DNA of 25,171 bases from positions 1 to 25,171 of the forward strand of contig JAJZBA010000001.1 in NCBI GenBank assembly GCA_021799155.1, read 5' to 3'. Under the pieces are notes generated by a model. It did no database searches, was not told where the DNA came from, and saw only the letters and a program-made list of their open reading frames with translations. Position numbers and translations under genes: made by a program. Source of the DNA: a bacterium (GTDB lineage Bacteria > Patescibacteriota > Minisyncoccia > UBA6257 > UBA9933). Shown here piece by piece: positions 4,750 through 23,511 of the stretch. Every line of letters begins with the position of its first letter. Position 1 is the stretch's first letter.

Positions 4750-5982
4750 ATGAAAAAAATTCTTAAAAATCGGTATTTTGCAATCGGTATTTTAATTATC
4801 GTCGTTGCCGCCCTGACCGGCGGGGCTTTTTATTTTGGATATAAAAGGGGGACGGAAAAACCGCAGACCGTTATTATTCGCGGAGTGGCAAATCTGGAAG
4901 AGGGGAATGTTGAAGCAGTTGATTTTTCTCTTTTTTGGGACGCTTGGAAAACATTAAAAGACAAATACGTTGGGGCAGATAAAATCAATAACCAAGACTT
5001 GGTTTACGGCGCGGTTTCCGGATTATTCGGAGCGCTGAAAGATCCGAATTCTGTCTTTTTTCCGCCATCGGACGCTAAAAAATTTGAAGAAGACATTGCC
5101 GGAGAGTTTTCCGGCATCGGCGCGGAAATCGGCATCAGAAACGACCAGTTAGTCATTATCGCTCCGCTTAAAAATTCGCCGGCCGAAAAAGCGGGTCTGA
5201 AAGCCGGGGATAAAATCATAAAAATTAACGACGCTTTTACCGTTGGCCTAAATGTTGACGAAGCCGTTAAATTAATCAGAGGTGAAAGAGGAACAAAAGT
5301 GATTTTGACAATTTCAAGAAACGGTTGGGAAAAATCAAAAGAAATTTCCATTATCAGAGATATTATTCAAGTCCCAACAATTGATTGGGAAATTAAAGAC
5401 AACAATATTGCTTATATTCATTTGTATAATTTTTACGAAAAAGCGCCGTTTTTGCTTTATCAAGCGATTTCCGAAATTGTTTTTAAAAATCCGAAAGGCA
5501 TTATTCTTGATTTGAGAGACAATCCGGGCGGATATTTAGAAGGGGCGGTTAATATTGCCGGTTGGTTCTTAGATCCCGGTAAAGTAGTTGTTAGCGAAGA
5601 ATTTCGTTCCGGCAAGAAAGAAGTTTTTAAAACTTACGGCAGCGGCTTATTTGACGGCTTTCCGATGGTTGTTTTAGTCAACGAAGGCTCGGCTTCGGCT
5701 TCGGAAATTTTAGCCGGCGCCCTGCGGGATAACAATAAAATTAAATTAATCGGCAAAAAAACTTTCGGAAAAGGAACTGTTCAGGAATTGGAAACGCTTA
5801 AAGACGGCTCAATGGTTAAAATTACAGTCGCTCACTGGCTGATGCCTAATGGCGGACTAATAGAAAAAAACGGCTTGAATCCGGATTATGAAGTCGACTT
5901 AACCGAAGAAGACGTTAAAGCCGGCAGAGACCCGCAGTTGGAAAAAGCAGTGGAAATTTTGAAATCGGAGATTTTAAAATAA
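4750..5982 (+). CDS. ctpA: S41 family C-terminal processing peptidase with PDZ domain
   Basis: N-terminal TM segment, GIG PDZ loop, ILDLRDNPGG, SASASEI, TFGKGTVQ, DPQLEKA. Confidence 0.93.
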   Translation: MKKILKNRYFAIGILIIVVAALTGGAFYFGYKRGTEKPQTVIIRGVANLEEGNVEAVDFSLFWDAWKTLKDKYVGADKINNQDLVYGAVSGLFGALKDPNSVFFPPSDAKKFEEDIAGEFSGIGAEIGIRNDQLVIIAPLKNSPAEKAGLKAGDKIIKINDAFTVGLNVDEAVKLIRGERGTKVILTISRNGWEKSKEISIIRDIIQVPTIDWEIKDNNIAYIHLYNFYEKAPFLLYQAISEIVFKNPKGIILDLRDNPGGYLEGAVNIAGWFLDPGKVVVSEEFRSGKKEVFKTYGSGLFDGFPMVVLVNEGSASASEILAGALRDNNKIKLIGKKTFGKGTVQELETLKDGSMVKITVAHWLMPNGGLIEKNGLNPDYEVDLTEEDVKAGRDPQLEKAVEILKSEILK

Positions 5983-6093
5983 ATTCCAAATCACAAACAA
6001 ATTTTCTAAATTCTAATTTCCAAATTCAAAACGTGAGTTTAGAATTTTGACATTTGATATTGTTTGTAATTTGGTGCTTGGGATTTGGAATTT
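5981..6093. repeat. 113-bp heptamer-repeat hairpin, copy 1 (inverted partner at 6907-7019)
   Basis: 111/113 identical to the reverse complement of 6907-7019; internally self-complementary (AAATTCCAAATC ... GATTTGGAATTT). Confidence 0.95.
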
Positions 6094-6101
6094 AATATAA
6101 T

Positions 6102-6563
6102 ATGCAAGTAATTCTTCTCCAAGACATAAAATCGCTCGGTAAAAAATTTGACGTGAAAGAAGTCAAAGACGGTTATGCTCGCAATTTTTTAATTCCTAAA
6201 GGACTGGCAAAAATCGCAACCGATGCCGCAGTAAAAGAATTAGAATTAAAAAAAGCGGCTCAAGAAAAAGAAGAAAAAGAAACAAAGGATAAACTGGAAA
6301 CACTGGCCGAAAAATTGACGGATAAAGAATTTCAATTCGCGGTTAAGGTCGGAGAAAAAGATGAGGTCTTCGGTTCTGTTAATAAAAACGACATTAAAGC
6401 GTTGATTTGCGCAGAAATAGACGCCGATTTACGAAAACGCATCGAAGATAAAATAGAAATAAATTTAGAGCGGCCAATAAAAACACTCGGTGAACACCAA
6501 GTAGAAATTGATTTAGGAAAAGGAGTTAAGACGAAAATTAAACTGAAAGTACTTGCCCAGTAG
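6102..6563 (+). CDS. rplI: 50S ribosomal protein L9
   Basis: MQVILLQDIKSLGK, VKDGYARNFLIP, FGSV, PIKTLGEH. Confidence 0.97.
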   Translation: MQVILLQDIKSLGKKFDVKEVKDGYARNFLIPKGLAKIATDAAVKELELKKAAQEKEEKETKDKLETLAEKLTDKEFQFAVKVGEKDEVFGSVNKNDIKALICAEIDADLRKRIEDKIEINLERPIKTLGEHQVEIDLGKGVKTKIKLKVLAQ

Positions 6564-6632: not shown

Positions 6633-6899
6633 GACTTGGACAACCTTAACCTTTCGGCTGTTGCCGTCAAAACAAACTTTTTTCTTGGAAACAAATTTAA
6701 CGACGCCTGATTTCAAAGCGTAAAGAGTATCGTCTTTGCCGCGGCCGACGTTTAAACCGGCAAGATATTTGGTGCCGCGCTGTCGAATCAAAATTTCGCC
6801 GGCTTTAACCATTTCTCTGTTTTGTCTTTTTACGCCCAATCTTTTGGAAATCGAATCTCTCCCTAATTTAGTTGAACCGTAGGATTTAGTATGTGCCAT
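6627..6899 (-). CDS. rpmA: 50S ribosomal protein L27
   Basis: [36 protein letters not shown]. Start set to ATG 6899; the upstream extension in the ORF track is repeat sequence. Confidence 0.97.
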
Positions 6900-6906
6900 A
6901 ATAATA

Positions 6907-7019
6907 AAATTCCAAATCCCAAGCACCAAATTACAAACAATATCAAATGTCAAAATTCTAAACTCGTGTTTTGAATTTGGAAATTAGAATTTAGAAAATT
7001 TGTTTGTGATTTGGAATTT
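6907..7019. repeat. 113-bp heptamer-repeat hairpin, copy 2 (inverted relative to 5981-6093)
   Basis: Only two substitutions versus copy 1, both in the hairpin loop (ACGTGAG vs ACACGAG). Confidence 0.95.
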
Positions 7020-7062: not shown

Positions 7063-7779
7063 ATGTCAATAACCAGTAAACTTATTTTTGATATTGAAAC
7101 CGTCGGCGTTGATTTTGATTCCCTAGATAAAACTACTCAAGACTCTCTTACGCGCTGGATTAAAAAAGAATCGGTCGGTGAAGAAGAATATCAGGTGGCG
7201 CTGGAAGAACTGAAAAACGGACTCGGTTTTTCACCTTTAACCGGAGAAATAGTAGTTATCGGCGTTTTAGATTATGTAAAAAATCAAGGCGTTGTTTATT
7301 TTCAAGCCCCCAATCAAGAAATAAAAGAATTTTGTGAAGATAATATTACATTTAAACAAGCCACCGAAAAAGAAATGCTGGAGCATTTTTGGAATGGCGC
7401 CAAAATGTACGATGAATTTATCGGATTCAATAGCCGGCAGTTTGACGGCCCGTTTTTAATGATCCGTTCGGCTTACCACGGCATCAAGCCGACTAAAAAT
7501 CTTTCCGAAAGCCGGTATTTATACCAACAAAAAACCTGCGCTCATATTGATTTGGCGGACCAACTCACTTTTCAAGGCAATATGAGAAAAAAGGGGAGCC
7601 TGCATTTGTGGAGCAAACTTTTTGACATAAAAAGCCCCAAAGAAGACGGCGTTACCGGAGACGATATGGGCCGACTATTCAAAGAGAAAAAATTTTTAGA
7701 TATTGCGAGATATAATGCGGGCGATCTCCGGGCAACTAAAAAACTTTACGAAAAGTGGAACCAATATCTTAATATTTAA
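7063..7779 (+). CDS. RNase H-like 3'-5' exonuclease domain protein (PolB-exonuclease-like / YprB-like)
   Basis: LIFDIET (ExoI), FNSRQFDGPF (ExoII), YNAGDL (ExoIII): DEDD-type motif set. Confidence 0.8.
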   Translation: MSITSKLIFDIETVGVDFDSLDKTTQDSLTRWIKKESVGEEEYQVALEELKNGLGFSPLTGEIVVIGVLDYVKNQGVVYFQAPNQEIKEFCEDNITFKQATEKEMLEHFWNGAKMYDEFIGFNSRQFDGPFLMIRSAYHGIKPTKNLSESRYLYQQKTCAHIDLADQLTFQGNMRKKGSLHLWSKLFDIKSPKEDGVTGDDMGRLFKEKKFLDIARYNAGDLRATKKLYEKWNQYLNI

Positions 7780-7830
7780 TTCAAAATTCAAAAATCAAAA
7801 TGCAAAATTACAAATCAAAAATAAAAAATA
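7780..7830 (+). repeat. A-rich heptamer array (TCAAAAT-like)
   Basis: TCAAAAT TCAAAAA TCAAAAT GCAAAAT TACAAAT CAAAAAT; contains the ATG of the next ORF. Confidence 0.8.
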
Positions 7831-7976
7831 CAAGAGAATGGTTAGAAAATAATCTCCGAACAATTATTCTTTTCTTTTTAATATTTCTGGTTAGTTCGAT
7901 TAGTTTTGGTTTGGGTTATTTGGTTAATCGCGAATTCACCCATACACCAATTATTATTGAGAAAACATGCAATTAA
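7800..7976 (+). CDS. Small single-pass membrane protein (58 aa), missed by the ORF track
   Basis: Manual translation: MQNYKSKIKNTREWLENNLRTIILFFLIFLVSSISFGLGYLVNREFTHTPIIIEKTCN*. One clear TM helix; 21 nt after the upstream stop. Confidence 0.72.
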   Translation: MQNYKSKIKNTREWLENNLRTIILFFLIFLVSSISFGLGYLVNREFTHTPIIIEKTCN

Positions 7977-8827: not shown

Positions 8828-8866
8828 AGCCCGGTTCAAGGTAAAACCTTGCCGAGCTGTTTTTTT
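8828..8866 (+). terminator. Intrinsic terminator after ORF 8362
   Basis: Imperfect stem AGCCCGGTTCAAGG / CCTTGCCGAGCT followed by a T tract. Confidence 0.6.
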
Positions 8867-8915
8867 GAATTTTGATTTGTAATTTTGATTTTTGAGATTT
8901 GATTTTTGATTTTTT
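8861..8915 (+). repeat. T-rich heptamer array (ATTTTGA-like), inverted relative to 7780-7830
   Basis: 8870-8887 TTTTGATTTGTAATTTTG is the exact reverse complement of 7803-7820. Confidence 0.78.
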
Positions 8916-9690
8916 AAAGATACCCGGCCTGTTTCAGCCAATATTCGTTCTCCCATTCCCAAAGTTTTTTTGCGCCCAAAAACGCCTTATAATCTTCCTG
9001 CCAATAAGGAAATTCTTTAAGTTCGATGTCGCCTCGGAGTTCGGACCATTCGTGTTCGCAATTTTTTGCTCTGAAATCGTAGTTTTTACCATTCCAAGGC
9101 AGCTTTATTTTTTGTCTTCCGCCTTTTTCCCGCAAAGTGGCGCCGCATTTAAAACATTTTTTAATCTGGTCAATTCTTAAAATCCAGCGAGTTTGTAAAT
9201 TTTTAAAATCGCTTTGCAAAGCCGCCATATAAGCCGAAGTTTGAAGATTGTAATCGCGATAAATCGCCTGAGAAGTTTTTATATCCAAAACGCCGAATTT
9301 GCCGTCAATTAAAGCCAAAGCATCTAAAGTGCCGGCATAGCGATCATTAAAATTGACAATTCGTTTTTCCACATGCTCGGAATCAACTTGAATGTTTTTC
9401 TCTTCCAAAAACTGAAAAAAAGCTTCTACCGCCGGCAAAATCGACGGTTCGATATGCGGTCTTTCACCGATAAGAATTTTTTCAATCGTTTCGTGAATCA
9501 AAGTGCCTTCGCTGGCTGATTGTTTTTTAACGGCTTCGCCCTCCGCAAAGCCGTTCATTTCGGCGTAAAAACGATAAAGTGCCGGCTTAGCTTTGATTTC
9601 CACGATTTTAGTAACGCGCGGATACCAAAAACCGTCAATCTCGTAGCCGGCAACTCCTTTAAAGTGTTCAAGATTTGAATAATTATTCAT
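8914..9690 (-). CDS. PD-(D/E)XK nuclease superfamily protein (Cas4/RecB-like)
   Basis: EGTLIHE, YAGTLD, VLDIKTS, YNLQTSAY; a CFKC...CEH insertion suggests a metal-binding loop. Confidence 0.85.
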   Translation of the reverse strand: MNNYSNLEHFKGVAGYEIDGFWYPRVTKIVEIKAKPALYRFYAEMNGFAEGEAVKKQSASEGTLIHETIEKILIGERPHIEPSILPAVEAFFQFLEEKNIQVDSEHVEKRIVNFNDRYAGTLDALALIDGKFGVLDIKTSQAIYRDYNLQTSAYMAALQSDFKNLQTRWILRIDQIKKCFKCGATLREKGGRQKIKLPWNGKNYDFRAKNCEHEWSELRGDIELKEFPYWQEDYKAFLGAKKLWEWENEYWLKQAGYL

Positions 9691-17599: not shown

Positions 17600-19309
17600 C
17601 TATTCGCGTATTACGCGCAAAACTTCCTCGACCGTTGTAATGCCAGTGGCGGCTTTTTGCAGGCCGTCTTCAAACATAGTAATCATTCCTTTTTTTCTCG
17701 CTAAAGCGTTTAAATTATCCAAAGAAAAATCCTGACCAATAATCAATTTTCTTATTTCTTCGTCAACGTTTAAAACCTCAAAAATGCCGATTCTGCCCTT
17801 ATAACCGGAATTACCGCAAGATTGACATCCCCGCCCCCGATAAAGAAATTTCGGAATTTTAAAAGTTGATTCGGGATTAAATTCTTTAAGCTGTTTATTT
17901 AGAAAATCAACCACTTCCTGATTCGGCGCATATGATTCAATGCAATCAAGACAAATTTTTCTAACCAATCTCTGAGCGATAATCGCGTTTAAAACCGCGG
18001 CCACCAGAAACGGAGCGATTTTCATATCAATCAACCGAGGCACGGCGGTGGCGGCATCGTTAGTATGCAAGCTGGAAAGAAGCAGGTGACCGGTTAAAGC
18101 CGAATGCACCGCAATTTCGGCGGTTTCTTCGTCGCGAATTTCACCAACCATAATAACATTCGGGTCCTGTCTTAAAATTGCTCGTAGACCGCTGGCAAAA
18201 GTGATGCCTGCCAAGGGATTGATTTGGGTTTGATTAATGTATTTTATATCATACTCTATCGGGTCTTCGATGGTAACGATATTAACTTCCGGTCGATTCA
18301 AAATATTTAAAATCGAATAAAGAGTAGTAGTTTTACCGGAACCGGTCGGGCCGCAAACTAAAATCATTCCGTAAGTTTTTTTAATATTCTCTTCAATAAT
18401 TTTTATCGTGTTTTCAAGCATCCCTACTTCTCCCAAAGAAAGAGGCCGTTGAGCGGAAGGGAGAAGACGCATTTCAATTTTTTCGCCGTAAAAAACCGGA
18501 ATAATTGCGACTCTAACATCAATTAAATCCGGCCCCACTTGATAGCGAAAACGGCCGTCTTGCGGTTTTTGATGTTCGTCAATTTTTAAACCGCCTAACA
18601 ATTTTATTCGGGCAACGATTGCCGGATGAACTTCTTTCGGAATTCTCATAATTTCATGAAGAACGCCGTCTATTCGATATCTGACAAGAATTTCATCTTC
18701 TAAAATTTCAATATGGATATCCGAAGCCTTAAGAGAAGCGGCATAAGAAAGAAATCCGTCGACAATAGCGACAATCGGCACTTCTTTCGCCGCTTCTTCG
18801 ACACTGCCGGCTTTTTTTTGAAGACTGGCATGAATATTTTCTTCAATAATTTTCTTAAAATCTTCTCCGATTCGACGGCTGTATAAAGCAAAACCGCGAT
18901 TTAAATCGTCGGCGGTCGCTAAATACGGCTTGATTTTCGATTTAAGATGTTTTTCCAAAAAACTGATTGCTTCCAAATCGGAAGGGTCTTCCATCGCGGC
19001 GTCCAAAACGCCATCAGGTTCCTGGGCGAAAATAATCGCTCTCTTTTGCCTTGCCAAATCTTCGGATAATTTTCTTAAAACACTTTCATCGATTTTCCGA
19101 CCGCTCAATTCGGCTTTCTCTACTCCGAAATAATTCGCGACCAAATCGTAAAAATAATCAACCGTAATAAACCCTCCGGAAACCAGAAGGTCGGCGATAT
19201 TTTGATTCATTCGCTTGGCTTCGTTTAAAAGATTATCAAACTTTTCTGAAGTAATCAGACCTTCCTTGGTTAAAACTTCTTTAAGTTTTTGGGGTGGAAC
19301 ATGCAACAT
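17600..19309 (-). CDS. pilB: Type IV pilus assembly ATPase PilB/GspE
   Basis: Walker A GPTGSGKTT, TIEDPIEY, MVGEIRD, His box HSALTGH, tetra-Cys CLDC/CQSC. Start set at ATG 19309. Confidence 0.94.
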   Translation of the reverse strand: MLHVPPQKLKEVLTKEGLITSEKFDNLLNEAKRMNQNIADLLVSGGFITVDYFYDLVANYFGVEKAELSGRKIDESVLRKLSEDLARQKRAIIFAQEPDGVLDAAMEDPSDLEAISFLEKHLKSKIKPYLATADDLNRGFALYSRRIGEDFKKIIEENIHASLQKKAGSVEEAAKEVPIVAIVDGFLSYAASLKASDIHIEILEDEILVRYRIDGVLHEIMRIPKEVHPAIVARIKLLGGLKIDEHQKPQDGRFRYQVGPDLIDVRVAIIPVFYGEKIEMRLLPSAQRPLSLGEVGMLENTIKIIEENIKKTYGMILVCGPTGSGKTTTLYSILNILNRPEVNIVTIEDPIEYDIKYINQTQINPLAGITFASGLRAILRQDPNVIMVGEIRDEETAEIAVHSALTGHLLLSSLHTNDAATAVPRLIDMKIAPFLVAAVLNAIIAQRLVRKICLDCIESYAPNQEVVDFLNKQLKEFNPESTFKIPKFLYRGRGCQSCGNSGYKGRIGIFEVLNVDEEIRKLIIGQDFSLDNLNALARKKGMITMFEDGLQKAATGITTVEEVLRVIRE

Positions 19310-19314
19310 AAAAT

Positions 19315-19715
19315 AAAAACCAAATATCAAATATCAAAAATCAAAACCACAAATTAAAAACTGTTAAATATTTTTTCTTTTTCTCATTGTTAATAAACTT
19401 AAAGCGAGAATATTAGACAATTCTCTAGTTTCATTTATTATTTCTTGAATTTTTGTTTTGTCCACTTTATCTAAATCTTTTAAAAGATGAAGCCAATACT
19501 TTGTTTCGTTAGCGGATTTAAAAGCGATATCGAAGTATCTAGCAAAATCCTTTTTAGAATTAGATGCTTTAGCTTCTATAATATTAATGCTGCCAAGAAA
19601 TTTAAGAGATTTCAGAGTGTACAAATAAACTCTATTTTGAAATTCTGTTTTTGAATTTTGATCTGTGGTTTTGGTATCTGGTTTTTGCATTTTGGTTCTA
19701 TATCTTTAAATTGTG
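19315..19715 (-). mobile_element. Four-helix-bundle gene cassette bounded by inverted heptamer arms
   Basis: Minus-strand 5' arm CCAAAATGCAAAAACCAGATACCAAAACCACAGATCAAAATTC and 3' arm TTTAATTTGTGGTTTTGATTTTTGATATTTGATATTTGG are complementary; the unit interrupts the pilus cluster. Mobility is inferred. Confidence 0.55.
19364..19690 (-). CDS. Four-helix-bundle protein (23S rRNA IVS protein / Avd-like family), apparently internally deleted
   Basis: NIIEAKASNSKKDF, AFKSANETKYWL, ETRELSNIL match the family; the usual LLRSxTSIGA segment before NIIEA is absent. Confidence 0.8.
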   Translation of the reverse strand: MQKPDTKTTDQNSKTEFQNRVYLYTLKSLKFLGSINIIEAKASNSKKDFARYFDIAFKSANETKYWLHLLKDLDKVDKTKIQEIINETRELSNILALSLLTMRKRKNI

Positions 19716-19718
19716 AGT

Positions 19719-20315
19719 TTAGAACTTCAACAATCTCCACAAAGGCAGTAATTCAAGCCATCTCTGTATGATTATAACAAAAATCGCGACAGATAACCAC
19801 AAGTAATACAAAGATATACGCCTTTCTTTAACTAACGACCAACGGCTAACGACGGACGACAATAAATGTAAAAACAAATAAATTAAAATTAGACTGATGA
19901 AATAAAACAGGGCGCCTGGCCAACCGGTTAAAAATAAAGCCAAAGCGCCGAAATAAGGTTCTTCGGGCTCAAAAAAACATTCGCCATATTTTTTGTTAAG
20001 TTTTTTTGCCGAAAATAAAAACAAAAAAGCGGCCGCTAAAGAAATTAAATAAGGAGCAAAAAATCTGGTAAACATATATAAAACAAAATAATGAATGCTT
20101 TGATAAGGCGGTAAAAGATATTTTGAAGGCTCATTTTGAGACCAAATTTGATATTGCGAATAAGATTGATAAAAAAGCAAAATAAAAATAGCAACAAGCG
20201 ATAAGTAAAAAGCGACAAGCGACGAGCGCTTGTGTTTATTAAAGAAGCGTCCCGTTTTAAAGCGGGACGCTCCAAAAAATAAAATTAAAATTCCTAAAGA
20301 AAAATAAAACACCAT
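19719..20315 (-). CDS. Multi-pass membrane protein in the pilus cluster
   Basis: About five hydrophobic segments; stop/start overlap with the pilin gene; GALALFLTGWP resembles the prepilin peptidase C-terminal region. Confidence 0.75.
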   Translation of the reverse strand: MVFYFSLGILILFFGASRFKTGRFFNKHKRSSLVAFYLSLVAIFILLFYQSYSQYQIWSQNEPSKYLLPPYQSIHYFVLYMFTRFFAPYLISLAAAFLFLFSAKKLNKKYGECFFEPEEPYFGALALFLTGWPGALFYFISLILIYLFLHLLSSVVSRWSLVKERRISLYYLWLSVAIFVIIIQRWLELLPLWRLLKF

Positions 20316-20848
20316 TACAAATCCAATCCAGGGTCGGTACCGACTTCATAGTAAGAAGCGCTATTTCCGCCGTCAGTGCCGTCTAAGTCCAGTGTGGTTG
20401 CGTATTTAGTACTTTCAAGAGTCGCGTTAAGTTCAAAGGTTAAATTGGTGGCGTCTCCTTTATAAGAATATTGATAAGTAGCATTGTTAGTCGGGTCAAG
20501 CGGCAGAACCGAAAGCGGAGAACCGCCGGTGGTTCCGGTCAAATCTATCGCCACCCATCCCGTACCGCTGACCGAAGAAGTGGCCACAGTGCAGGTTCCA
20601 AAAGAGCAGGTGGCATTTGCCGTTGATCTCGGACCGACTGAAACAGTAGGACTCGAAGCAGTCGCCAAATACAAACCAATTGCACTTTTAACACTGCCCA
20701 AATCGGAAATTCTTTGCGAGTCCCTGGCCTGCGCCAATAATTGGGCCGGATTCAAAACCAAAACCGCGGCGGTAGCTAAAATCGCCAGAATACCGATAAC
20801 AATTAAAAGTTCTATCAGAGTAAAACCACGTTTCGCATTTTTAATCAT
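20315..20848 (-). CDS. Type IV pilin (probable major pilin)
   Basis: KRGFTLIELLIVIGILAIL class III signal, NP helix break, ARDSQRISDL. Confidence 0.92.
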   Translation of the reverse strand: MIKNAKRGFTLIELLIVIGILAILATAAVLVLNPAQLLAQARDSQRISDLGSVKSAIGLYLATASSPTVSVGPRSTANATCSFGTCTVATSSVSGTGWVAIDLTGTTGGSPLSVLPLDPTNNATYQYSYKGDATNLTFELNATLESTKYATTLDLDGTDGGNSASYYEVGTDPGLDL

Positions 20849-20905
20849 ATATGATTATATTATAAAAAAATAAAAACTAATACAATGCCGAAACTGTGAA
20901 TAACT

Positions 20906-21292
20906 TTAACGCGCCTGAATCAAAAACTCTTTGATTTTTCCAACCAATTCGTCTATGGAAGTTTTAGCCTTGATAAAATATTCAATCGCTCCCAATTCCT
21001 GACCGCGATTGACATCTTCCGGCTGGCCTAAATTAGAAACAATAATAATAGGAACCTCTTTTGAAGATATTTGAGGGTCGTTTTTTATTTCTTCCATCAC
21101 CTCAAACCCGGATTTTTTCGGCAGAATAAGATCTAAAAGAATAAGGTTCGGCTGAAGCGATTTTAATAAATTTAAAGCCTCATCGCCGTCTTTGGCAAGA
21201 GACACCCTTAACCCTTCTTTTTCTAATCGGTTTTTCAATAAAGAAGAAAGAAAGACGTCGTCTTCAACGAGAAGTATTTGTGGATTTTCCAT
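20906..21292 (-). CDS. Single-domain response regulator (receiver only)
   Basis: LLVEDD, LLDLILPKKSG (phospho-Asp), IVSN, YFIK. Confidence 0.92.
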   Translation of the reverse strand: MENPQILLVEDDVFLSSLLKNRLEKEGLRVSLAKDGDEALNLLKSLQPNLILLDLILPKKSGFEVMEEIKNDPQISSKEVPIIIVSNLGQPEDVNRGQELGAIEYFIKAKTSIDELVGKIKEFLIQAR

Positions 21293-21362
21293 AAAATAAA
21301 TTATACCAAAATTCTTTTAGTTGTCCCAGACCGAAACTTAAGGTTCCTCGGTCAACACCTTG

Positions 21363-21487
21363 CGTTCGCTCCGCTCGCTACCACCGATACAAAACTACAA
21401 ATAGTTAGTGCGAATCTCCAAATAGTATATTCGTAGATTCGAATGAATTCGTAGTTTCGCATCGCGTAACAGTGAGCGAAACGAACG
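21363..21487 (-). repeat. 125-nt hairpin element, copy in the 16S 3' trailer
   Basis: 122/125 identical to 23082-23206, same orientation. Confidence 0.95.
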
Positions 21488-22103
21488 ATATCGACACTTT
21501 TTTAGTTTAGTTGTTCCACGCACAGCTTCCGCTACGCGTGCCTTGTTACGACTTCTGCCATGTCACCGAACTTACCTTAATCCCGCCTAAGCGAGACTTC
21601 AGGCACTCCCGGCTCCCTTGCAGTGACGGGCGGTGAGTACAGGACTCGAGAACGTATTCACCGCGCCATGGCTGATGCGCGATTACTAGCGATTCCAGCT
21701 TCATGAGGGCGAGTTTCAGCCCTCAATCCGAACTGAGGTCGGCTTTGATGGGATTAGCTCCGCCTTGCGGCTTGGCAAACCCATTGTACCGACCATTGTA
21801 GCATGAGTGTGGCCCAGGGCATCAAAGGGCCATGCGGATTTGACGTCATCCCCGCCTTCCTCCCCCTAATGAGGGCAGTCTTCCGAGACACTTATAACTC
21901 GGAACAGGGGTTGCGCTCGTTACCCCACTTAAGGGAACGCTTCAAAGTACGAGCTGACGACAACCATGCAGCACCTGTCCTGCCGTCCTTGAGAGACGAC
22001 CATCCTTTCGGACGATCTTCGTCAGGATTTCAAGCCCTGGTAAGGTTCCTCGTTTACCGTCGAATTAAACCTCATGCTCCACCGCTTGTGCGAGTCCCCG
22101 TCT

Positions 22104-22135
<32 letters not shown>

Positions 22136-22819
22136 TCCCAGGCGGTCCGCTTAACGCGTTAGCTTCGCCACTCCGAGGGTCGACACTCGAAACAGCTAGC
22201 GGACATCGTTTAGGGCGTGGACTACAAGGGTATCTAATCCTTTTTGCTACCCACGCTTTCGCGGCTCAGAGTCAGGAACGTCCCAGCAGAATGCCTTCGC
22301 CTTTGGTGTTCCGCACGATATCAACGGATTTCACCCCTACACCGTGCGTTCCATCTGCCTCTAACACCCTCTAGTCCAGCCGTATTCATTGCGGTTCCAA
22401 AGTTAAGCTCTGGAATTTAACAATAAACGCGCCAGACCTCCTACCCGCTCTTTACGCCCAATAAATCCGGATAACGCTTGGGGTCTCTGTATTACCGCTG
22501 CTGCTGGCACAGAGTTAGCAACCCCTTATTCAACTGGTACCATCAATCCCACTAAAAGCAGGACTTTTCCCCAGTTAAAAGCGGTTTACAATCCGAAGAC
22601 CTTCTTCCCGCACGCGGCGTCGCTCCATCAGGCTTTCGCCCATTGTGGAATATTCTCGACTGCTGCCACCCGTAGGTGTACGGCCCGTGTCTCAGTGCCG
22701 TCGTTGGAGGACAGCCTCTCAGCCCTCCTACCGGTCATAGCCTTGGTGAGCCATTACCTCACCAACTAGCTGATCGGATCTAGGCCAATCAAGCGCCGAA
22801 TACATTGCTGTATCCTTTA

Positions 22820-22996
22820 CTGCGCACCTCACTAAAGTTCAGTGCTTAAAGTGCTTAACCAAAATTCAAAAACCAAAATTCAAAACCACAAATCAAAAAC
22901 TATAAAATCTATCGTTTGAAAATTTTTACTCTGTGGTTTTGGTCTTTGATATTTAATTTTTGCTTTTTAAACACTTTACCTTAATGAGATGCGCAG
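22820..22996 (-). other. 16S helix 9 insertion (intervening-sequence-like, about 177 nt including closing stem)
   Basis: Stem CTGCGCATCTCATTAAGGT / ACTTTAGTGAGGTGCGCAG (differences all G-U compatible) encloses inverted heptamer arms; sits between AATGGT and TAAAG where helix 9 is normally a short hairpin. Confidence 0.88.
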
Positions 22997-23081
22997 ACCA
23001 TTGGGAATTATCCAATCTTTCGACTGGCTATGCCCAAGCGCTCGGTATGTACCAAGATGTTACTAACTCGTTCGCCGCTAA

Positions 23082-23206
23082 CGCTCGCTCCGCTCGCTAT
23101 CACCGATACAAAACTACAAATAGTTAGTGCGAATCTCCAAATAGTATATTCGTAGATTCGAATGAATTCGTAGTTTCGCATCGCGTAACAGTGAGCGAAG
23201 CGAACG
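23082..23206 (-). repeat. 125-nt hairpin element inserted at the tip of 16S helix 6 (V1)
   Basis: Lies between CAAGTCGAGCGAT and TTAGCGGCGAACG; folds as one long imperfect hairpin. Confidence 0.93.
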
Positions 23207-23278
23207 ATCGCTCGACTTGCATGCCTTATCCACGCCGCCAGCGTTCATCCTGAGCTAGGATCAAACTCTCAAATAAAC

Positions 23279-23365
23279 TAGGTGTTAGGTATTAGGTGTT
23301 AGGTGTTAGAGAGCGAAAATAAATTATTCGCACCCTAAAACCTAAAACCTATAACCTAAAACCTA
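23279..23365. repeat. Heptamer hairpin in the 16S leader
   Basis: (AGGTGTT)n arm and (AAACCTA)n arm separated by a short spacer, immediately 5' of the mature 16S. Confidence 0.82.
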
Positions 23366-23375
23366 ATAAATAAAT

Positions 23376-23394
23376 TGGGACAACTAAAAAAATT
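23376..23394 (-). other. Leader strand of the pre-16S processing stem (partner 21310-21328)
   Basis: Leader AATTTTTTTAGTTGTCCCA pairs 19/19 (one G-U) with trailer TGGGACAACTAAAAGAATT. Confidence 0.8.
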
Positions 23395-23455
23395 CTGATT
23401 TAATTTTAACGCTTCATTTAATTGTCAAAATGCTTTCCGTTTCCATCCTATTTTT

Positions 23456-23483
23456 ATTATAGAATCCCCCACCCTCTTGTCAA
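23456..23483 (-). promoter_or_regulatory. Sigma70 promoter of the 16S gene
   Basis: Perfect TTGACA (23483-23478), 16-nt spacer, TATAAT (23461-23456). Confidence 0.85.
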
Positions 23484-23511
23484 TAGATAAAAACTATAAT
23501 AATATATATTT

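Follow-up and report, generated by a model that had tools for sequence, protein, structure and literature searches.

An ORF-less hairpin in helix 9 of a patescibacterial 16S rRNA gene resembles the arms of a nearby PF05635 cassette

The 16S rRNA gene in the window (25,171 nucleotides, the whole of contig C7 of genome G000) carries a hairpin without an open reading frame (ORF) in place of the loop of helix 9. Judged by sequence comparison, this hairpin appears to be homologous to both arms and the inner loop edges of a cassette that lies about 3.2 kb away and contains a four-helix-bundle (PF05635) gene, the gene body being missing from the rRNA copy. The best reading of this similarity, short of proof, is that the hairpin would be a gene-less derivative of such a cassette. 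We put somewhat better than even odds (a probability of about 0.55) on the insertion being an ORF-less rRNA intervening sequence that comes from a gene-bearing PF05635 cassette, one belonging to the subfamily of the decayed copy nearby. The genome comprises 479 kb in 67 contigs (38% GC, rated 95% complete), a size in keeping with a bacterium of the candidate phyla radiation (CPR). It brings together what appear to be three states of one arm family: on contig C8 a cassette with a full-length gene, next to pilB a partly deleted cassette, and in 16S helix 9 a hairpin that lacks the gene.

A long hairpin replaces the helix 9 loop

The 16S rRNA gene contains two insertions, in helices 6 and 9, and is followed by a copy of the first:

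21504..23276, minus strand: 16S rRNA gene with the helix 6 and helix 9 insertions (Rfam RF00177, 1399 bits, model positions 1-1533)
22830..22985, minus strand: ORF-less 156-nt insertion replacing the helix 9 loop at model position 188 (Infernal alignment, folds)
22902..22971, minus strand: A-rich 5' arm and inner loop edge of the helix 9 insertion, aligning to the cassette 5' arm and the first codons of the cassette gene
22847..22901, minus strand: T-rich 3' arm of the helix 9 insertion, aligning to the cassette 3' arm
23082..23208, minus strand: ORF-less hairpin insertion in helix 6, the second in this 16S rRNA gene (Infernal, fold; 108-nt insertion relative to the model)
21363..21489, minus strand: second copy of the helix 6 insertion (98% identity), just past the 3' end of the 16S rRNA gene (sequence comparison)

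In the Infernal alignment, both strands of the native helix 9 stem are preserved next to the 156-nt insertion. The insertion folds into a single long hairpin (-72.1 to -72.8 kcal/mol; z = -10.4, with none of 200 shuffled sequences reaching the same value) of about 70 base pairs, the native helix 9 stem included. Its two arms are complementary, and a tandem-repeat finder detected arrays with periods of 7 and 14 at 22857-22900. The conserved arms enclose about 35 nt, rather than the approximately 25 nt given in the first-pass annotation of this DNA, and there is no four-helix-bundle gene or other ORF between them, whereas the copy at 19364-19690 has one. The insertion combines properties of two kinds of elements. 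As in rRNA intervening sequences, an extended stem-loop stands in place of the terminal loop of an rRNA helix and is sporadically present at a conserved site among relatives; as in heptamer-armed cassettes, the arms are inverted heptamer arrays.

The nearest available genomes are at most 87% identical to G000 in 16S rRNA. Of the 28 16S rRNA genes compared, besides that of G000 only those of G023 and G050 have a comparably large helix 9 hairpin; the other 25 have none or a short one, so the insertion is not simply conserved in the clade. Vertical conservation, which had been considered as a potential argument against mobility, is accordingly not what these 28 genes display. The length of the aligned segment around helix 9 in the relatives is 34, 40-48, 58-61, 76-80 or 182-206 nt.

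Two other types of elements were considered and rejected. A group I or group II intron was discarded because Rfam yields no intron match: the sole match in the window at the gathering score is the 16S rRNA itself. As in a MITE-like transposon, inverted arms are present, but inspection of the helix 9 junctions and of the pilB gap revealed no direct duplication of the target site, no transposase was identified, and the arms vary between cassettes. No mobility enzyme was identified for the element in this analysis.

The hairpin aligns with both arms of the cassette upstream of pilB

The cassette takes up precisely the interval between two genes on the same strand:

19719..20315, minus strand: gene for a 198-aa membrane protein, directly upstream of the cassette (tblastn matches beside pilB in G007, G018, G015 and G019)
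19314..19713, minus strand: PF05635 cassette, consisting of 5' arm, gene and 3' arm, between the 198-aa membrane-protein gene and pilB (alignment; empty sites in relatives)
19364..19690, minus strand: decayed four-helix-bundle gene, 108 aa (PF05635, 55 bits, profile positions 45-104 of 106; TIGR02436, 55 bits)
17600..19306, minus strand: pilB, type IV pilus ATPase, directly downstream of the cassette (PF00437, E = 2.5e-121; orthologs in 37 of the 37 genomes searched)

Local alignment of the insertion with the cassette requires a single gap of 262 nt, which corresponds to the gene body. The 5' arm contributes 32/42 identities, the inner edge 8/9 and 10/11, and the 3' arm 39/45 and 4/4, an alignment over both arms that bears out the initial suggestion of a gene-less likeness of the cassette. 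The 3' arm is 87% identical to its cassette counterpart over 45 nt, its best non-self match in the genome. Two 14-mers, ACCAAAACCACAGA (22930-22943 and 19662-19675) and ATTTGTGGTTTTGA (22880-22893 and 19341-19354), all on the minus strand, follow each other in the same 5'-to-3' order at the two loci and are found nowhere else in the 479-kb genome; the shared words had indeed been reported to keep order and orientation. Helix 9 and the C7 cassette also share a variant heptamer, which has just one further occurrence, in a solo array next to prfA (C43:8907-8958).

The C7 cassette is the top non-self match for both helix 9 arms (56.7 and 53.6 bits) by a margin of just 1-2 bits, other A-rich arrays scoring 55.2, 52.0 and 50.4 bits. 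Profiles of the canonical arms match about 40 arrays in the genome, and among these, only the C8 and C7 cassettes and the helix 9 5' arm extend into the part of the profile that encodes the protein N-terminus (position 100 and beyond). With nhmmer, the helix 9 5' arm could be aligned to positions 17-101 of the canonical 5' arm profile (E = 0.017), and the E-values of the helix 9 arms in profile searches are modest throughout (4e-4 to 0.017). Homology beyond the repeat units is thus suggested by the one-gap pairwise alignment and by the profile alignment that reaches the coding part, yet with this E-value and a small margin over other arrays. The putative coding remnant in helix 9 is about 25 nt long and AT-rich.

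The 108-aa ORF of the cassette passes the cut-offs of both PF05635 and TIGR02436, but over the C-terminal 60% of the profiles alone. Alignment with the paralogs on contigs C8 and C50 shows that 22 internal residues, including a conserved motif, have been deleted in frame, and for this reason we consider the C7 gene to be a decaying copy.

The 198-aa membrane-protein gene is the conserved left neighbor of pilB in related genomes. In members of three genera (G007, G018 and G015), the gap between the two genes, 12-62 nt, is empty, which provides the empty target sites that the first-pass annotation had proposed to look for. In a fourth genus (G019), the gap is occupied by a PF05635 gene that belongs to a separate subfamily and whose CTCTAAA-type arms are quite unlike those of C7. 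It follows from the three empty sites and the other cassette in G019 that the C7 cassette is an insertion and that filling of this gap took place at least twice. Across five genera, the pilB site is therefore empty, filled, or filled with another cassette.

PF05635 genes are accompanied by inverted arms

The genome encodes seven PF05635 genes, and all seven are bracketed by inverted short tandem-repeat arrays, most with their own repeat unit; the proposed association between four-helix-bundle genes and inverted heptamer arms thus holds for every member of the family in this genome. When 408 ORFs were scored for flanking inverted repeats, the five testable PF05635 genes ranked 3, 4, 5, 7 and 11. 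In related genomes, most of the 27 PF05635 loci examined carry inverted arms, a few of the pairs being short and weak.

A search of species-representative genomes with the alignment of the C7, C8 and C50 copies as the query detected 219 loci of this subfamily, of which the best 80 share 58-85% protein identity. The hosts among these 80 include Planctomycetota (Phycisphaerae, Pirellulales and anammox genera), many Patescibacteria, Gammaproteobacteria, Ignavibacteria, Dehalococcoidia, Nitrospirae, Omnitrophota and others. The loci share the arms as well as the gene, as indicated by the mean pairwise DNA identity of the successive segments:

non-coding part of the 5' arm: 51%
coding region: 66%
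3' arm: 67%
flanks further out: 36-39%, equal to background

The start codon and roughly the first twelve codons of the gene fall within the 5' arm. Judging from these identities, the subfamily travels across phyla as a unit of arms and gene. None of the best 80 loci is located within 2.5 kb of an rRNA gene.

Several additional loci with a similar arrangement were observed. The cassettes at C8:1811-2254 and C50:1257-1742 occupy the same position, upstream of a similar gene, in paralogous loci; the flanks of these loci are about 85% identical by eye, and the arms and genes are much more diverged. At C18:1247-1721 (L158), a GxxExxY gene (TIGR04256, 120 bits) lies between inverted arms and is framed in the same way as the PF05635 genes, as a second type of cargo. 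In the window, two arms of the canonical cassette type, at 7775-7832 and 8858-8925, are inverted relative to each other and separated by about 1 kb. The left one provides the start codon and the first 10 or so residues of a predicted 59-aa membrane peptide, and the region within the arms includes an orphan ORF of 153 aa preceded by a strong Shine-Dalgarno motif.

Origin of the helix 9 hairpin

A cassette-derived hairpin could have arisen by either of two routes. The gene might have been deleted from a filled cassette that resided in helix 9, or the cassette and an older helix 9 hairpin might have exchanged sequence through local copying or gene conversion. The strongest competing explanation, which we consider distinctly less probable, is that the insertion is a generic heptamer-array hairpin that never contained a gene and that originated when repeats expanded or when an intergenic hairpin was copied into an rRNA loop that tolerates insertions. 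Under this scenario, the likeness to the cassette would reflect membership in a shared family of A-rich arrays, or gene conversion between loci 3.2 kb apart.

Generic hairpins are indeed plentiful in this genome. There are 68 hairpin-type inverted repeats in 479 kb, many of which are gene-less heptamer hairpins of 100-200 nt, and rpsM, rpsH, secY and a GxxExxY gene are likewise bordered by inverted arrays. Together with the approximately 40 arrays that match the cassette arm profile and the small score margin that separates the cassette from other arrays, this abundance favors a generic source. So does the local copying of whole hairpins on the contig, with 98% identity between the helix 6 hairpin and the one in the 16S trailer and 96% identity between those at 5981-6104 and 6897-7019. 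The 127-nt helix 6 hairpin and its trailer counterpart are direct copies and, as one resides in helix 6 and the other beyond the 3' end, they bracket most of the 16S rRNA gene.

The main support for an origin from the general pool of hairpins comes from the two relatives with a large helix 9 hairpin. In G023 and G050, these hairpins are built from different heptamers, and within each genome they resemble generic hairpins between genes, not the PF05635 cassettes.

Four observations argue against a purely generic hairpin in G000. The alignment with the cassette runs past the repeats into its inner edges on both sides; the N-terminus-coding part of the profile is reached by true cassettes and the helix 9 arm only; both 14-mers are unique to helix 9 and the C7 cassette (the variant heptamer can be counted too, although it is also present in the solo prfA array); and filled cassettes do occur in 16S rRNA helices of relatives. 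Specifically, within the class to which G000 belongs, G160 has a 432-nt insertion in 16S helix 6 that holds a PF05635 gene between CTAGTAA-type arms, and G165 and G044 contain helix 6 PF05635 cassettes with the same layout, in agreement with the 18 PF05635 ORFs reported in 16S insertions of the CPR (PMC11270868). The search for filled 16S copies covered genomes at the family, order and class levels, about 140 of them with an assembled 16S rRNA gene, and within this sample, filled cassettes were detected in helix 6 and none in helix 9. On these grounds, we favor the gene-less cassette derivative over the generic hairpin.

The broader proposal of the first-pass annotation, that a single family exists in filled and gene-less forms in rRNA genes and elsewhere, survives in part. 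Both forms are found in rRNA genes and between protein-coding genes, as illustrated by helix 6 of the three relatives and by the pilB gap. The arm type is not specific to cassettes, being shared by about 40 arrays, and the G023 and G050 hairpins differ from the cassettes of their own genomes.

All examined rRNA hairpins of G000, two in 16S and four in 23S, are ORF-less. The 23S rRNA gene is split over C21:13619-16729 and C43:1-450, with 126 identical bases in the overlap of the contigs, and contains at least five ORF-less heptamer-array hairpins. One of these, a 200-nt hairpin at C43:168-367, about 130-160 nt from the 5' end, has arms that agree more closely with the canonical profiles than those of 16S helix 9; it is close to what we take to be the classical helix 9 site of 23S intervening sequences. 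Another insertion, of about 170 nt at 23S model position 583, presumably also lies near a classical intervening-sequence site.

Predicted fate of the hairpin in the transcript

We propose that the RNase III of this bacterium, the gene for which is present at C6:1204-1596, would cut the long double-stranded stem out of the pre-16S rRNA. The product would be a fragmented yet working 16S rRNA, which could account for the tolerance of the insertion. The helix 9 stem is asymmetric between strands: the rRNA strand forms about 70 pairs, 10 of them G-U (-72.1 kcal/mol), compared with 60 pairs, 2 of them G-U, on the opposite strand (-44.3 kcal/mol). A similar asymmetry is seen in the helix 6 hairpin, both it and its trailer copy folding far better on the rRNA strand (8-9 G-U pairs), but not in the cassette arms. 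Because G-U pairs favor the rRNA strand in these hairpins, unlike in the cassette arms, the rRNA hairpins are maintained as RNA structures.

The inverted-repeat stems of PF05635-bearing intervening sequences are cut by RNase III, and extended stem-loops in 23S rRNA genes have been cleaved in every tested case (PMC4990558). Furthermore, according to the mention in PMC11270868, Brown et al. reportedly found that rRNA insertions of the CPR are removed from transcripts. Considering that RNase III is encoded in the genome, that 23S stem-loops are its substrates and that CPR insertions are reportedly removed, excision leaving a split 16S rRNA would be the most likely fate of the helix 9 hairpin. Comparison of three groundwater metatranscriptome runs, which have sequence words in common with this 16S rRNA gene, with positions 19000-23500 yielded RNA contigs from other organisms only, matching in pieces of 60-110 nt with up to six mismatches each.

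It appears doubtful that the hairpin is instead left unexcised and kept in the mature 16S rRNA as a bacterial expansion segment. Such retention has a precedent in eukaryotic 18S rRNA, which contains an expansion segment at helix 9, and would be compatible with the continuous variation of helix 9 length among relatives (from 34 to 182-206 nt); the G-U-rich sense stem fits any stable RNA structure, whether excised or retained. Against this stand the length of the stem, which at about 70 pairs makes a good substrate for the RNase III that the genome encodes, the reported removal of CPR rRNA insertions from transcripts (Brown et al., as relayed in PMC11270868), and the cleavage of 23S extended stem-loops in all tested cases (PMC4990558).

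Relationship to known intervening sequences and repeat arrays

The helix 9 insertion resembles ORF-less rRNA intervening sequences (Salmonella-type in 23S, rare in 16S), in which, in the outline given in PMC4990558, a stem-loop without an ORF replaces the tip of a surface helix and is sporadically present at a fixed site, in a host that has RNase III. It differs from these in its location in 16S helix 9, in its tandem heptamer arms and in the homology of the arms to a non-rRNA cassette of the same genome; the G000 element itself is described here from its sequence. ORF-bearing 23S intervening sequences that encode S23p/PF05635 proteins (in helix 45 of Coxiella burnetii, and in Leptospira) have a counterpart in the C7 cassette and in the helix 6 cassettes of relatives, with the same protein family in the loop of an inverted repeat (PMC4990558). 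In contrast to the Coxiella burnetii and Leptospira elements, the helix 9 copy is gene-less, and the filled copy in the window lies between protein-coding genes, outside rRNA. The short rRNA insertions of the CPR described by Tsurumaki et al. (2024, PMC11270868; and by Brown et al., 2015, as cited there) are likewise shorter than 200 bp, lack an ORF and an Rfam intron match, and are located at the top of stem-loops; in PMC11270868, these short insertions are unclassified and are not linked to PF05635 cassettes or heptamer arrays. Intergenic heptamer arrays, such as GGGNATC in cyanobacteria and Xanthomonas (PMC4692102) and TAACTGA in Beggiatoaceae (PMC4679880), are similarly abundant 7-nt tandem repeats near the starts and ends of genes, but these are mainly direct repeats, with no attached gene family and no rRNA copies.

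In the literature on PF05635 and flanking heptamer repeats, we found no described link between the two beyond PMC4990558 and PMC11270868. The suggestion in the first-pass annotation that the system is undescribed accordingly has to be narrowed: intervening sequences with and without ORFs have long been known, and PF05635 ORFs in CPR 16S rRNA are published (PMC4990558, PMC11270868), so that what is new is the link between an empty rRNA copy and a filled cassette. The origin of rRNA intervening sequences has been debated since about 1990, and one published proposal regards them as what is left of mobile elements, the ORF having formerly served mobility (PMC4990558). To this debate, the present analysis adds an rRNA copy that lacks the gene and appears homologous to a filled but decaying copy outside the rRNA genes of this genome; a subfamily of cassettes in which the arms are conserved alongside the gene across phyla; an intergenic site next to pilB that is empty, filled or differently filled over five genera; and filled helix 6 copies in relatives. 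These findings make the notion of intervening sequences as decayed cassettes directly testable and suggest that many of the unclassified short rRNA insertions of the CPR could be classed in the same way. Hairpins of this kind lengthen and may fragment the 16S rRNA, which affects primers, read mapping and rRNA-based surveys of the CPR.

More speculatively, PF05635 cassettes and gene-less heptamer hairpins might be the autonomous and non-autonomous forms of one mobile element that enters the tips of rRNA helices as well as narrow intervals separating genes of the same orientation, passes from phylum to phylum and is neutralized at the RNA level by RNase III, with the four-helix-bundle protein acting on the hairpin RNA or DNA to promote copying. 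We regard this single-element scheme as rather improbable in its entirety. If true, it would imply that the classical rRNA intervening sequences are one landing site of a much wider element.

Assembly support and genomic context

Independent sequence data confirm that the helix 9 insertion exists in the DNA. One public DNA run provides a contig that covers 22653-23130 with zero mismatches and at a depth close to that of the neighboring genome, 89-94% of the sampled words from the 16S region are found in runs from three other studies, and the helix 9 stem that flanks the insertion is intact and complementary. An assembly or binning artifact, such as a chimeric join within the 16S rRNA gene, is therefore rejected as extremely improbable, even though metagenome assemblies often break at rRNA genes and contigs from other samples do stop at the 16S borders. 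Scanning metagenome contigs for the exact flanks of helix 8 and helix 9 yielded no closer relatives, and exact-protein look-ups retrieved the same strain only, from other samples (99.9-100% identity), on contigs that end at the 16S rRNA gene.

Elsewhere in the genome, heptamer hairpins with shared sequences (C26:3979-4359, C26:545-1813 and C6:47-545) separate rpsH, secY and rpsM, as if punctuating the operon. In the window, 5981-6104 and 6897-7019 form a 124-nt inverted repeat, 96% identical, around rplI and rpmA; each copy is a hairpin located immediately upstream of a start codon. There is no 23S rRNA gene after the 16S rRNA gene in the window. The 16S rRNA gene and pilB are located on the same contig, a few kilobases apart, in many genera of the order (G001, G005, G007, G019, G038, G039, G040, G041 and G050).
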